Source: Eledone cirrhosa
Lineage: Eukaryota
DNA length: 64,000 nucleotides
Reading direction: 5' to 3'
Assembly (NCBI GenBank): GCA_964016885.1
Contig: OZ024741.1
Coordinates: 252,898,001 to 252,962,000, forward strand
This document shows positions 8,841 through 62,478 of the stretch, piece by piece. A program made the translations under genes and the position numbers. The notes beneath the pieces were generated by a model that was not told the origin of the DNA, ran no database searches, and was given only the letters and a program-made list of their open reading frames with translations. Numbering within the stretch: position 1 is the stretch's first letter; every line of letters begins with the position of its first letter.

Positions 8841-9120
8841 ATATATATATATATATATATATATATATATATATATATATATATATATATATATATATAT
8901 ATCAGACCTTGATAATGTAAACATTAAACTTATTCATTCCTTTGTCCATAGAGCTTAAATCTAATTGCATCATCATTCACTGATTGGTGTGTTGCCTACA
9001 CAACCCTGATTAGTCAACATTTTATAACATAAGTATATATATATATATATATATATATATATATATATATATATATATATATATATATATAAAATCTGAG
9101 TTTTTTTGAATACTAATAAT

Positions 9121-9305
9121 TGTTTCTACTTTTGGCACAAGGCCAGCAATTATCCCAGTGCATTACTGGTACTTTATTTTATTGACCCCGTAAGGATGAA
9201 AGGCAAAGTTAACCTCGGCGGGATTTGAACTCAGATCATAAAGGGAGGTAACTCTATGCTTCAAAGCATGGCACCCGACCCTCTACCAATACTGCCAATC
9301 CACCA
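9121..9305 (-). mobile_element. group A SINE with 19-bp TSD
   Basis: Near full-length; TTTTTTGAATACTAATAAT at 9102-9120 and 9306-9324. Confidence 0.9.
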
Positions 9306-9732
9306 TTTTTTGAATACTAATAATACTATTTGATTCGTTTGCAATTATGCAAACAGCCTCTTTTAAGCCATTCTACAGTTCTGTTTACATGCCAACACAA
9401 GAGCAAGAATGAGGGGCTCATTCTACTTACATGGCTGAAAAGAGGCTGCTTGCATAATTGCATTTTTGCAAAATTACATTTATTGTATTCAGCCATGTAT
9501 AGCGATAACTTTTTGTTAGCAATTTGAATATGGCAAAGCCGGCCATTAATCTCTGGTATACAGGAAACTGACTGGATTATCTGCTGATATGAAAATCTGG
9601 ATGATCAGTGGATCTGCTAAGATGAAGATCTGACTGATCAGCGAGTCTGCTAATATGCAAATCAGGCTGATCTGTATATTTTAGAAAATATCATATATTT
9701 TCACTAGCTCTGACAGTTGGCAGGTGAACAGT

Positions 9733-9783
9733 GAATTGTACTGATGAAGCGTAATCACCCAGAAACATTAGTGTCTACAGTTC
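9733..9783 (+). ncRNA. type I hammerhead ribozyme motif (stem II degenerate)
   Basis: Stem I GAATTGTA/TACAGTTC; CTGATGA 9741-9747; GAAA 9762-9765; near-palindromic stem III ACATTAGTGT; GTC triplet ending at 9775. Confidence 0.7.
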
Positions 9784-10276
9784 TGTTTACATGCCAACAC
9801 AAGAGCAAGAATGAGGGGCTCATTCTACTGACATGGCTTAAAAGGGGCTTGTTTGCATAATTGCAAACGAATCGAATATTATTATTAATATTCGAAAAAC
9901 TCAGATTGCATTTATTGTATTCAGTCATGTAGAGCGATAACTTTTTGTTAGTTATTTTATATATATACATAATAATAATAATAATAATACTATTTATAGT
10001 TATGTATATAGTATAAACAACTATAAACAGGAAGGTCAGTAATTTCCTATTACCTTATTACCACTAAGAGAAATAGTTCAATGTAGGAACATGAGTTGTT
10101 TTACAGAGCAGGAAAATTAATAAATTATACAATTATCAAAGTTGTGTCCAAATCATTTAATAGCTGACAATCGTTTCTTCCAAACTCTCATTTGGAGTCA
10201 TCGGAGCATTATCAATGTTTGTACATATAATTAACCTCCTATTCAACTGAACAATAATATAGATACATATATATTC

Positions 10277-11002
10277 GAAGCTTGCATGCTCCGCTGGATG
10301 TGTAACAGTAATATACGTGAACGGCAGAGCATAAACGAACTAAGGAAAAAATTAGAAATAAGAGGGATCAGATGTTGTTTACTCGAGAGAAGGCTACGTT
10401 GGTATGGACACGTGATGCGCATGAAAGTCGATAGCTGTATAACAAAGTGCAGGGCAATAAAGATAGACGGTAGCCACGGAATAGGCAGACCTAGAAAAAC
10501 CTGGGACGAGCTGATAAACTCCGACCTCACACACTTACACCTCTCCAAGACAATGTCACTGGACCGAGACCTTTGGCGGTACTCAGTAACAGAGAAGACC
10601 CGCCTTACCTAAATACAAAGTAAAACCTACTACAGCCAGTAGGCATCTCTAACAAAATACCCCCCCCCCCACCCCCCACCCCATCCACACCACCCCCTTC
10701 TATGTAAAGTTATGTCGGTGCCACACCATCCAGGCCGAAACAAATGGGATTGTGTAGGTGTCACGACAAAAAAACACACAGTTCACGCTGTAATGTGGCC
10801 GTGTAGGCAACACGGTAAAAACCTCCCAGACCCACACTGTAAATGTGGTTGGTGTTAGGAAGGACATCCAGCCGTAGAAAACCTGCCAGACAGTCCTATG
10901 CGGGCAAGACAATCACTCTTGCCTCAAGTGGGACTACCCCCGTCCAAACCCATGCAAGCATGGAACACGGACGTTAAACGTTGATGATGATGATGATGAT
11001 GA
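10277..11002 (+). mobile_element. 5'-truncated RTE-clade LINE (ORF C-terminus + 3'UTR + (GAT)n tail)
   Basis: ORF 10286-10612 contains MLRWMC...RRLRWYGHVMRM...GRPRKTW...DRDLWR, typical of an RTE C-terminus. Confidence 0.9.
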
Positions 11003-11012
11003 TATATTGATG

Positions 11013-11285
11013 TTGTGAGCAACAGTTTCGTATTTACAGGGTGGAATGGATGTGACATATATTTTACGATAATTGTACAAAAATTCAAATTCAAATTCAA
11101 ATTCAAATTAAAAGCACAGATAATACAGGAGAATAGAATAGTCTATTCTCCTGTATTATTTGTTGCATGTATTCCACTCTGTGCTTTTAATTTGAATTTC
11201 AATTTGAATTTGAATTTTTGTACAATTATCGTAAAATATATGTCACATCCATTCCACCCTGTAAATACGAAACTGTTGCTCACAA
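11013..11285. repeat. near-perfect inverted repeat (108-bp arms) with a nested 17-bp hairpin
   Basis: 11013-11120 is the reverse complement of 11178-11285 (one mismatch seen); inner TAATACAGGAGAATAGA-ATAG-TCTATTCTCCTGTATTA at 11121-11158. Confidence 0.95.
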
Positions 11286-59405: not shown

Positions 59406-59994
59406 ATTTAGGAACAGTTTAGGTATGATACATTTTATTACTAATTATATCTAAATGTTTCTTCTCTCTTCATAATGTATTTTTAACTCTGATACTGGTT
59501 CAGTCTGGTTCAAACTGAATTGGTCTGTCCCAGTCATTCATTGAGCAACATCGGTGAAGTTGGCACCCTTAACTCACAGTTGGGTGCGGATGCATTCATG
59601 TATATATGTGTGTGTCCGCATGTATCTGTGTGTTTCTAAATATATATATATATATATATATATGGGTTCCACCAGGTTTAAAATACTTAATATATATATG
59701 ATGATGATGATGATGATATCCCTGGTGGAATATTTTGGGTATATTAAACCTGGTGGTACCCATAGCCTTTCCAGATTTGAACACAGCCAGAGAAGGAAAG
59801 AGAGAAAAAGGGAGAAGGAAATATAGAGAAAAACATCATCCTCAGTAATGGACTGGTACATTTTTATCAATCTCAAAAATTTGAACTCAGAAAGCATAAA
59901 AAAAAAATCAGAAAGATTACTGCAAAGAACTCTATCCAATGTTCTAATGACTCTGCCAATTTGCCACCTTATTCTACATAAGACATATAATAAC

Positions 59995-60182
59995 TGTTTC
60001 TACGTTAGGCACAAGGCCAGAAATTACACAGTGCATTACTGGTACTTTATTTTATCGACCCCGTAAGGATGAAAGGCAAAGTTAACCTTGGCGGGATTTG
60101 AACTCAGAATGGCAAGGGCCGTAACTCTATACATCAAAGCATGGCGTCCAACCCTCTACCAATACTGCCAATCCACCGCCCT
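59995..60182 (-). mobile_element. group A SINE with 16-bp TSD
   Basis: TAAGACATATAATAAC at 59979-59994 and 60183-60198; a degenerate copy precedes it at ~59840-59970. Confidence 0.9.
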
Positions 60183-60549
60183 TAAGACATATAATAACAA
60201 CAGGTGAGATGCAGTGGGGCTAGGAAGATGAGAAATATTCATTTAAATCTAAGGGATAAAATGTTCCAAGGGTGAATATGGTGCATTGCTCTTTGTGTTT
60301 CCTGGAGTGATGCTCTATGGTAGGTGGGCACTCTGGATATTTAGCTGTGATTAAGGGATTAGCCAGAGATATTGAAATGGTGGTGCAATTGGGTTGCCTG
60401 GAGTAGCTTGACAGACGCTGTGAAGGACATTGGCAGACAAATCAACTAGTTGATAGCCTATTTTCCAGCATTGGATTATAGTAAAGTAAATTATCAAAAC
60501 CTTAACTCTTGACAAAGTTGTAAAAGTGCTGTCTTGATACACACACAAC

Positions 60550-60780
60550 ATGTTTTGGGCATTTCAAACCTGGTGGTACCCCTTTCTCTCCAGGTCTAAA
60601 CACAGTTGATTGTTTCCAGATAAAGTGAGAATGAGAACAAATTGACCCCAGTATTGAACTGGTACTTTTTTTTATCAAACCTGAAAGGATAGGATTTGAA
60701 CACAGAATACATAAAATCAAAACAAATGCTGAAACATTTTTAATTTGAAGCCCTAATGACTCAACCAATTTGCCGTCTTC
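60550..60780 (-). mobile_element. group A SINE variant (as 25578-25808)
   Basis: Minus strand GTTCAAATCC..CCTTTCAGGTTTGATAAAAAAAAGTACCAG..GGTACCACCAGGTTTGAAATGCCC. Confidence 0.65.
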
Positions 60781-61539
60781 AGACAAATAAGAACATGTGT
60801 AAGGCACCAAGGAAAGAGAAGTGCTATTTTATTCAAATGAAATGTATTTGTTATTCCAAAAAGAATTTTTTGGCTGACATTATATAAGAGGGTCACAGTA
60901 ACCTTTTAAGTGTTTCGGGCCTCAAAAGGACACAATCCAGCTTGGCTTGCTTCACCAACAAAACAGACATCACAGAGTTTGCTAATGATGTAGTATATAA
61001 TATTGATGGATGTGTAGCTGAAGCTTTGTGTGATTTTGGTATTGTGTTTAGATATGACAATTGTCGTGATATTATTAAGGTAGGAATAGGTGTAACATAT
61101 GTTATGGAGATCCTACTTGAATATACCTGGCTGCATGAAGCTGGGAACTTCTAATTAAAAAATTAAAAAAGGTTGTTGTGGAAATTCCAATCCTGAAACC
61201 CCCCCCCCCCCCCCACACCTTCCATCCAATTGAAAGACAGAGGAGATGGCGTGGGAAGAGATCGGTTATGGGGCTAGAGAATAGAAATTGGCAGTTGCAA
61301 AATAGTATGCTTTAATAGGGGGGTTGCTGGGTGGACAGTAAAATGTGGTAGGGATCTGGTCTGTACATGTGCCTGAGGAGATGGGGTTGTAGCTGAGCAG
61401 CAGTTGGCATGGTTGATGGCCTTCTTCCCTTCCTAATCCCACTCACCCCAGCTGCTGTTATGCAGAATGTCTTTAAAAAATCTTTATTTTATTTCTGGTA
61501 TTTTAAAATTCATTTCTATTTAAATTTTATTATTATTAA

Positions 61540-61985
61540 GTGTGTGTGTTTGTGTGTATTTGTGTGTGTATGTGCATGTGTGTGCATGCGTGTGTATGTG
61601 TGTGTGTATGAATATGTGTGTGTGTGAGTGTTTGTGTGTGTGTATGTGTATGTGTGTGCACTAGTGAGAAAATGTGAATTGGTAGCACACTATCTCTAGT
61701 TCGTGTCCATGTATGTTTGAATGTATGAGTGTGTGTCTGTGTGCTCACCTTATCTGTATTTATGTTTATGCACTGACGTGTGTATGTGTATGTGTGAGTA
61801 AGTGTGTGTGTGTGTGTGTGTGTGTGTGTGTGTGTGTGTGTGTGTGTGTGTGTGTGTGTGTGTGTGTGTGTGTGCAATAGTGAGAAAATGAGAATTGGTA
61901 GCACAGCTTCACTCATTCGTATTCATGAGTGACTCCATGAATATGTGTGCTTTTATTATCTGTGTGTGTGTGTGTGTGTGTTTAT
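61540..61985. repeat. (TG)n microsatellite field
   Basis: Directly visible. Confidence 0.95.
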
Positions 61986-62444
61986 GCATGCACTGACATG
62001 GATGCACATGTATTGTGTGGGTGTGGGTGTGCTACTGTTGACAAACTTTATGTTACATTCTCTGACCTGGCCAACAAAAACACCCCTTCCCTTCCTTAAA
62101 CTGACAATTAAACCCCATCCCTCTCCTCAACACCCTCGTCCTCTTTTAATGCTCTTATTTTTTCTTTATCCCACCCTCTCCCAAATTCTTTCCTCCCTTC
62201 TCTGCCTATCTCTCTTTATCTCTAATCGCTCTTCCTTGCTCTCTTTATCTCTCCTTTATCACTTTTATTCTCCCTCCACCTCACCTTCTACCAACTTTTC
62301 TTCCTCTCTCCTTTCCTCTATTATATTCTCTCCAGCCGCTTCCCTCCTATACATATGCAACTACTAACTCTGTGTCTCTAACTGTCATGCGACTAAACAC
62401 ATCATAGACTATGGGCAAAGGATATCTCTCTCTCTCTCTTTCTC

Positions 62445-62478
62445 TGTCTGAAGAAGGACTTCGTCCAAAACATCAAAA
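62445..62478 (+). ncRNA. decayed minimal hammerhead motif
   Basis: CTGAAGA-aGGAC ttc GTCC-aAAAC-aTC; two CpG-type changes from CGAAACGTC; stem I not intact. Confidence 0.4.

Follow-up and report, generated by a model that had tools for sequence, protein, structure and literature searches.

What are the hammerhead ribozyme motifs that lie scattered through a 64,000-nucleotide (nt) stretch of the Eledone cirrhosa genome (GenBank assembly GCA_964016885.1, contig OZ024741.1, positions 252,898,001 to 252,962,000 of the forward strand; hereafter 'the window', with positions counted from its first letter), and how might they have come to be there? A preliminary description, made from the letters alone, had counted seven apparently unrelated hammerhead-bearing elements, and each of the core strings that it listed is present in the sequence: CTGATGA at 9741 (+), 16235 (+), 16860 (-), 23980 (-) and 24134 (+), CCGATGA at 24449 (-), TTGATAA at 58732 and 59323 (both +), and CTGAAGA at 62448 (+). 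Judged by sequence comparison, six of the seven sites (9741; 16235; 16860-16685 on the minus strand; 23980/24134; 24449-24394 on the minus strand; 58732/59323) are copies of six unrelated, short, non-coding repeat families with Penelope-type hammerhead motifs beside TA microsatellites, which we call Fam-1 to Fam-6 in that order; the count of seven falls by one, as the site at 62445/62448 is unsupported. The reading that we favour, and hold to be probable, is that each of these six sites is a copy, decayed or close to intact, of one of six unrelated retroelement families, non-coding and equipped with a type I hammerhead of Penelope type, and that the copies were likely inserted into (TA)n by the reverse transcriptase (RT) and GIY-YIG endonuclease of autonomous Penelope-like elements (PLEs).

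In window copies or other family copies, each of the six families has three helices and U16.1-H17 in the order helix I 5' strand, core, helix II, GAAA, helix III, NUH, helix I 3' strand, an arrangement that site 62448 lacks. The helix sequences differ between families, yet all helices pair, and typical copies of every family retain a hammerhead of type I in which helix III is short or self-complementary. The core CUGANGA...GAAA is canonical in typical copies of Fam-1 to Fam-4, and Fam-6 is covariant (U3-A8); the exceptions are Fam-5, with C at position 4 (C4), and the Fam-2 copy of the window, which has A at G12. Comparison of family representatives yielded only a single low-complexity match, which agrees with the earlier remark that the elements share no sequence outside the core. 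The type I topology with short or self-complementary helix III, the (TA)n flanks and the tandem or inverted partial copies, all of which had been ascribed to most or all of the seven, hold for the same six sites; at 62448 there is no helix III. The window copies at 24134/23980, 24449 and 58732/59323 agree with the typical form of their own families, and those at 9741, 16235 and 16860 are, as far as their predicted folds tell, disabled by later mutation.

In the Fam-6 insertion (58567..59645, +), a full unit of 589 nt (59057-59645, +) is preceded, head-to-tail, by one that is 5'-truncated (58567-59054, +; unit positions 102-589), with (TA)n at 58550-58570 and 59641-59665. In the first hammerhead (58727..58814, +), UCCUC leads into UUGAUAA (58732-58738; U3-A8), a helix II of 57 nt (GU(C)GGCA..UGCCAC), GAAAC, the palindrome CUACGUAG, C17 at 58809 and GAGGA; the second (59318..59405, +; core 59323-59329, C17 at 59400) is identical. 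There were 17 first-look candidates for this family in the genome, of which 15 loci were analysed for their architecture, and most copies are 100% identical to the window query. All 14 distinct variants keep UUGAUAA, G10.1-C11.1, GAAAC, CUACGUAG, GUC and helix I, the interior of helix II being variable. (TA)n flanks were present at 15 of 15 loci, an inverted 5'-truncated copy lay on the 5' side in seven of them, and arrays reached at least 4.3 units. There are two recurrent 3' ends, at unit positions 589 and 424 (...AATGTA then (TA)n), both TA-like, the latter for example at L002, L007, L008 and L009; the second end would fit priming wherever the RNA offers a UA-rich stretch. In a stretch of the random genome sample considered below (L254:636-2274; G000:C4:250000636-250002274), three TTGATAA sites recur with a 592-nt period and are accompanied by an inverted one, and this array is likely to be a further locus of Fam-6 type.

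Fam-4 is represented in the window by two arms arranged head-to-head: a left arm of the long-tail form (23800..24048, -; core 23980-23974, predicted cut after 23932) and a right arm (24066..24240, +), the tail of which runs into (TA)n. The arms are 175 nt each and 95% complementary, with a spacing of 17 nt. The right-arm hammerhead (24126-24190, +) has its core at 24134-24140, a 9-bp helix II with one C.C mismatch, GAAA at 24171-24174, AUAUGUAU as helix III and A17 at 24182. At least 61 candidates, 94-99% identical to the window, were found in the genome; units measure 0.31-0.45 kb, and the core is CTGATGA in 32 of 38 occurrences. The copies have an outer end fixed at (TA)n and a variable inner end, and 16 of the 30 fetched loci, including that of the window, hold head-to-head pairs.

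Close by, a fragment of Fam-5 (24360..24460, -; unit positions 866-966 of about 1055 nt) lies between (TA)n runs. Its hammerhead (24460-24383, -) comprises a helix I 5' strand, CCGAUGA (24449-24443), a long helix II preceded by A and followed by G, GAA, a helix III of ACC/GGU with loop UCU, A17 at 24394 and a helix I 3' strand at 24393-24383. In the best fold an 11-bp helix I abuts the core directly, an 11-bp helix II is closed by A.G, and a 3-bp helix III is followed by GUA; this fold, with its 11-bp helix I, was better than, and replaced, an earlier one that had a 5-bp helix III and a 7-nt bulge by the core. Helix II of typical copies has 11 bp with one bulge, and the descriptor counts for the window copy are 15 contiguous pairs in helix I, 7 in helix II and 3 in helix III. 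Fam-5 units (about 1.05 kb) have two TA-ended 3' forms and are frequently in head-to-head pairs; first-look candidates number at least 2,058, most copies being identical among themselves and 94-99% identical to the window. The core is CCGATGA in 35 of 36 occurrences and CTGATGA in none, and, because CpG decay would change CCGA into CTGA, the C is original to the family. It is conceivable, although we think it unlikely, that Fam-5 has a working natural hammerhead with C4, kept in shape by its unusually long helices I and II, and that this ribozyme drove a recent expansion yielding at least 2,000 near-identical copies. In that case a well-stabilised type I hammerhead would not strictly need the uridine-turn position. 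Rare hammerhead core variants do occur (PMC3088659; here and below, the papers cited are drawn on in part), and no precedent for C4 was found in the portions of the literature looked at, including those of PMC3088659 and PMC4209133.

The remaining three families are older or more decayed in the window. The composite insertion of Fam-1 (9092..9957, +) is bounded by (TA)n tracts at about 9034-9091 and about 9960, and comprises inverted tail pieces (9092-9119 and 9306-9371, separated by an inserted short interspersed nuclear element, SINE) followed by a direct copy of more than one unit (9372-9957). Its decayed hammerhead (9733..9783, +) has CUGAUGA at 9741-9747, GAAAC at 9762-9766 and GUC with C17 at 9775, and helix II is broken (AGCG..CACCCA). 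At least 2,132 first-look candidates were found in the genome, with about 91% identity to the window copy. The full-length unit is about 0.5 kb, and copies have a variable 5' start, then the hammerhead, then a tail of about 146 nt ending ...ACATTTAT(AT)n. The typical hammerhead consists of a helix I of 8 bp, not 14 (a different register is available farther out), then CUGAUGA, one unpaired A, helix II GGGU/ACCC closed by the loop AAU, a second unpaired A, GAAAC, a 3-bp helix III and GUC. In 23 distinct copies, 93.9% of cells in the helices were paired, compared with 17-51% when the partners were slid.

The copies of both Fam-2 and Fam-3 are only 70-77% identical to those of the window, and the plurality states of both of these old families are canonical. 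The Fam-2 element (15924..16478, +; full-length unit at most 0.55 kb) typically reads CCUA, CUGAUGA, an unpaired U, GAGCC...GGCUC, GAAAC, the perfect palindrome ACAGCUGU, A17 and UAGG. The decayed hammerhead of the window (16231..16330, +) keeps CCUA, CUGAUGA (16235-16241), U, a helix II of about 70 nt beginning GAGC, ACAGCUGU, A17 (16326) and UAGG, and has lost G12 at a CpG (CAAAAC, 16314-16319). CTGATGA is retained in seven of 15 copies and GAAAC in eight; CAAAAC is found in the window and three other copies and TGAAAC in five, these being the two products of CpG decay at C11.1-G12. In Fam-3 the layout is UAAACU, CUGAUGA, U, GCCG, an insert of about 140-160 nt, CGGC, U, GAAAC, ACAUGUGU, U17 and AGUUUA, and CTGATGA and TGAAAC are each retained in 12 of 18 copies. 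The window hammerhead (16679..16866, -; core 16860-16854, GAAAC 16696-16692, GUU with U17 at 16685) has a helix II of about 150 nt, with helices I and II weakened; the tail ends in (TA)n at about 16610-16650, and an inverted partial copy lies at 16945-17089 (+).

The interpretation of these sequences as non-autonomous Penelope-like or retrozyme families that insert into TA microsatellites, which the preliminary description had put forward, is supported by several features of the DNA. Full-length units are short (0.3-1.05 kb; 0.59 kb in Fam-6) and lack open reading frames (ORFs), and Pfam detected no domain in window ORFs lying over the elements of the six families. All six end in (TA)n and are 5'-truncated, as head-to-tail or inverted partial copies; such 5' truncation, partial copies before full ones and inverted 5'-truncated copies are Penelope-like. 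Insertion into TA microsatellites is borne out by the flanks of every Fam-6 locus and by the genome-wide association described below. Several waves of insertion, also proposed, are reflected in the graded identities to the window, from Fam-6 (mostly 100%) through Fam-4 and Fam-5, then Fam-1, to Fam-2 and Fam-3. It had also been remarked that no autonomous Penelope ORF is visible, and indeed, according to Pfam searches of window ORFs, the only coding sequence is a degraded long interspersed nuclear element (LINE) remnant (27498-29180, +; Exo_endo_phos, E 4e-8; RVT_1, E 5e-11 and 8e-10), with frames broken by stops, and there is no GIY-YIG domain.

A search for coding partners elsewhere in the genome, as had been suggested, was productive. 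There are at least 10,595 first-look GIY-YIG candidates, and all 150 of those scored pass the Pfam cut-off. An open frame of 938 amino acids combines RT and GIY-YIG (RVT_1 at 28.0 bits, just below the Pfam cut-off of 29.6; GIY-YIG at 28.3 bits, above 22.6) and is flanked by two identical U3-A8 hammerheads 4,979 nt apart. In 14 of 30 GIY-YIG loci the ORF is followed on its own strand, at a distance of about 450 nt, by a UUGAUAA hammerhead in which helix II has an unpaired U at each side and helix III is ACCGGU.

How might such units move? The hammerheads are predicted to cut their transcripts, and we infer self-cleavage and mobilisation along the following lines. In tandem or read-through transcripts, two neighbouring motifs would dimerise through the self-complementary helix III, and the dimer would cleave just 3' of the NUH triplet; whether linear or circularised by ligation, the unit RNA might then be copied by target-primed reverse transcription, primed where a UAUAUA-like stretch of RNA could pair with a nicked (TA)n tract. 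Template jumps could give rise to the more-than-unit and inverted copies.

Might the hammerhead look of these sites instead be due to chance, through relaxed cores and fortuitous pairing in AT-rich DNA full of inverted repeats? The scan with a relaxed core (YYGANRA) against shuffled sequence that the preliminary description had proposed does not discriminate: the window contains the bare string 136 times, and with the relaxed descriptor there are three sites against 0.57 in shuffled controls (dinucleotide-preserving, in 2-kb blocks of the window), a number reached by 2-3 of 100 shuffles. The more specific descriptors, however, gave hits far above their shuffled controls. A strict one (CUGANGA, helix II of at least 3 bp, GAAA, A15.1-U16.1 plus at least 1 bp, H17, helix I of at least 4 bp) finds two sites, both in the palindrome arms at 24 kb, against 0.02-0.05 per shuffle, and none of 100 shuffles reaches two. 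When three base-pair-keeping C3-G8 variants and one helix II irregularity are allowed (the covariant-core descriptor), there are four (the 24-kb arms and both copies at 58-59 kb), against 0.045, and none of 200 shuffles reaches four. A descriptor that leaves position 4 free and tolerates an unpaired base flanking helix II on either side recovers the 24449 site, against 0.055, and in no shuffle match do both helix I and helix II reach 8 bp. By these structure-aware descriptors, three independent window elements are thus well above chance, the excess over shuffles being 40- to 100-fold. Mutations in the window copies at 9741, 16235 and 16860 make these fail all of the descriptors; among 19 loci of each of their families, descriptor G (false rate 0.01 per 64 kb of shuffled window) is passed by eight in Fam-1, two in Fam-2 and three in Fam-3.

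The same excess is seen beyond the window. In 40 arbitrarily spaced 10-kb stretches of the genome (400 kb), a union descriptor found 55 sites, in 24 of the stretches, compared with 23 in 2 Mb of shuffles (4.6 per 400 kb); the window has five per 64 kb against 0.46 in its own shuffles. On this 400-kb sample the genome average, at about 8.8 sites per 64 kb or about one per 7 kb, exceeds that of the window, which is therefore no hotspot: the population is as dense as had been claimed, and its density is a property of the whole 3.0-Gb genome, not of this locus. The suggested test for enrichment next to (TA)n was positive: (TA) runs of at least six repeats lie within 400 nt downstream of 36 of 53 sites, compared with 882 of 4000 (22%) random positions in the same stretches (odds ratio 7.5, the 53 sites of the sample not all being independent). 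Chance, then, is a very improbable explanation overall and is contradicted for the six sites, although it does hold for 62448, the only single-copy site of the seven. In one place (L248:8630-9683; G000:C3:280008630-280009683), four CTGATGA sites with a 311-nt period, and one on the opposite strand, make up a retrozyme-like tandem array.

Rfam annotation finds few of these motifs. No hammerhead family reached its gathering score anywhere in the window. Canonical type I hammerheads do exist in the genome: from 415,510 first-look candidates, 19 of 74 scored places exceeded the Rfam cut-off, and the 30 loci fetched for the Rfam-positive places all belong to one family, with the same layout and a tail that reaches its (TA)n end some 186 nt past the core. 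Control loci of this kind (L031 and L038) matched Hammerhead_1 (RF00163), which has the same core and topology, at 37.8, 35.5 and 31.7 bits. Only one of the 30 loci passes descriptor G, as helix I of this family is of 3 bp. At L031:1501-1671, a perfect hairpin of about 96 nt lies between two canonical hammerheads of opposite strand and has a sub-threshold Rfam match to mir-5985 (60.9 bits; gathering score 100); we reject a microRNA (miRNA) here in favour of a head-to-head junction of PLE type.

Several observations nevertheless weigh against a functional, PLE-driven origin of the six families. At Rfam E-values up to 10, ten small loci cut around the seven window sites, and one additional candidate in the window, gave no hammerhead match, a result that could equally be cited in favour of chance. 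Three of the window copies (9741, 16235, 16860) have disabling changes; helix II of Fam-4 begins with A-U (10.1/11.1) and holds the C.C mismatch; and Fam-5 combines C at the conserved U4 with an A.G pair at the base of helix II. Covariation in Fam-1 was no better than in shuffles (a single double-change pair, reached by 90 of 500), which can be put down to the youth of the copies. No tail was common to the six families and 30 GIY-YIG loci (of the at least 10,595 candidates). Copy starts were not enriched at the predicted cut, one of four full-length Fam-1 copies being exact and two of 15 Fam-6 loci starting within 6 nt of it. Published mini-hammerheads of PLEs cut poorly in vitro (PMC4209133), and the Naiad PLEs thrive without canonical hammerheads (PMC8557442). 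Taken together, such points give some chance, well short of even, that these are PLE-type repeats in which the hammerheads are passengers or relics, cutting has no part in their spread and variants like C4 are dead. On this account hammerheads may parasitise PLEs, as PMC8557442 allows, and the success of Fam-5 despite its CCGATGA core, as well as the lack of clustering of copy 5' ends at the cut site, would be as expected. What it does not readily accommodate is that the full three-helix fold is kept in six unrelated families and in autonomous elements while the helix sequences differ, which is hard to explain without selection on master copies, and that U3-A8 is a paired change preserving a core base pair.

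Two further explanations dispense with PLEs. The families might be SINE-like and moved by LINEs, their (TA)n being ordinary simple-repeat tails of LINE type: the LINE remnant of the window has an apurinic/apyrimidinic endonuclease as well as RVT_1 (27.5-29.2 kb), SINEs derived from tRNA are common in the window, and 5' truncation is also a trait of LINEs. Simple direct insertions, however, have (TA)n on both sides, which points to a target and not a tail; partial-before-full copies and head-to-head 5'-truncated pairs are PLE hallmarks (PMC8557442); and the motif is of the same type as the hammerheads that flank the RT and GIY-YIG frame, so that we regard mobilisation by LINEs as improbable. 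The inverted arms at 9092-9907 and 23874-24240 could, on the other hand, be taken for terminal inverted repeats (TIRs) of DNA transposons (miniature inverted-repeat transposable elements or foldback elements), given the near-perfect complementarity of the latter (95% over 175 nt) and the TIR-like look of 9092-9119 and 9880-9907. Many copies are single-armed, though, with the outer end fixed and the inner end variable, which indicates 5'-truncated retro-copies joined head to head rather than TIRs of fixed length; the transposon interpretation was rejected on these grounds and has only the slightest probability. Insertion by the machinery of autonomous PLEs is thus the explanation that we prefer.

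Elements of this kind have been described before, and within its genome the window is unexceptional. The minimal hammerheads of PLEs (Cervera and de la Pena 2014, PMC4209133) are likewise of type I, with a short helix III whose palindromic loop lends itself to dimerisation, a long and bulged helix II that has an unpaired base at its 5' end, a short helix I and the U3-A8 covariant (about 1,300 matches in one flatworm genome); they too occur as opposite-strand pairs, 100-700 bp apart, most copies being dispersed and truncated. Those motifs lie in the flanking repeats of coding PLEs, whereas here most are in short families without ORFs, and they differ also from the C4 of Fam-5, the unpaired base on both sides of helix II in Fam-1, Fam-3 and Fam-5, and the helix II of about 150 nt in Fam-3. 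Metazoan non-LTR (long terminal repeat) retrozymes (Cervera and de la Pena 2020, PMC7229834; Li et al. 2026, 10.64898/2026.07.22.740005) are similar in being short, AT-rich, non-autonomous units with a type I hammerhead, in their head-to-tail copies, and in coexisting with autonomous PLEs, which have been proposed as their mobilisers. Published retrozyme units are mostly 150-450 bp, in longer arrays and expressed as circles; the units here, known from DNA, are of 0.3-1.05 kb, mostly with one or two copies per site, always in (TA)n and often with an inverted partner. The insertions resemble those of PLEs (Craig et al. 2021, PMC8557442) in their high 5' truncation, partial copy before full copy (pseudo-LTR), inverted 5'-truncated copy at the 5' side and strong bias to microsatellites, (TA)n in the case of Naiads; the elements treated there are coding, and Naiads lack canonical hammerheads. 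The autonomous element checked here (L224) has a C-terminal GIY-YIG, in contrast to the N-terminal order of Naiads.

Hammerhead motifs, then, can be spread through an animal genome at intervals of about 7 kb, in many unrelated non-coding families that lie in TA microsatellites and have Penelope-type junctions, and this supports the proposed link between animal retrozymes and PLEs. Nearly all such motifs are missed by Rfam-based annotation, and the families may be counted as unclassified SINE-like repeats in genome annotations. In this connection, one cephalopod repeat paper describes PLEs and many unclassified SINE families as recently active (PMC13282606), and in a literature search the term 'hammerhead ribozyme' was absent from cephalopod repeat papers that mention Penelope. 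Families with C4 or U3-A8 would be natural test cases for the tolerance of the hammerhead core to change.

Some minor features of the window may be mentioned. At the unsupported site (62448..62471, +), CUGAAGA is followed by A, GGAC uuc GUCC and AAAAC, with no U16.1 and no helix III downstream and with A at G12. The site is single-copy in the genome apart from one weak relative, L132 (79% over 66 aligned positions); as L132 has GAAAC at that place, the A at G12 would fit CpG decay. A possible eighth motif (14700-14623, -) has UUGAAGA, a 6-bp helix II, GAAAC, the palindrome ACAAUUGU as helix III and a tail into (TA)n. It was left uncounted as a hammerhead, its in-window paralogue (15222-15327, +; 74%) being without the 9 nt that contain GAAAC, and its appearance is probably due to chance. 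Copies of tRNA-derived SINEs lie at 21707-21770 (-), 22738-22794 (-) and 14717-14947 (+); two window copies, at 29.8 and 29.3 bits, only just attain the gathering score of the Rfam tRNA model, and BLAST against other loci reveals many more. Below threshold, Rfam matches mir-297, mir-466, mir-3149 and similar families hundreds of times, at 3000-8300, 20600-20870, 54500-55060 and elsewhere; these were rejected as miRNAs, being hairpin artefacts of (TA)n and (TG)n (best 150 of 380 matches). Finally, about 18 kb of the window (32000-50500) is strongly strand-asymmetric, with a GC skew of 0.81-0.84, a GC content of 46-48% and long stop-free frames, and looks like a G-rich tandem satellite.

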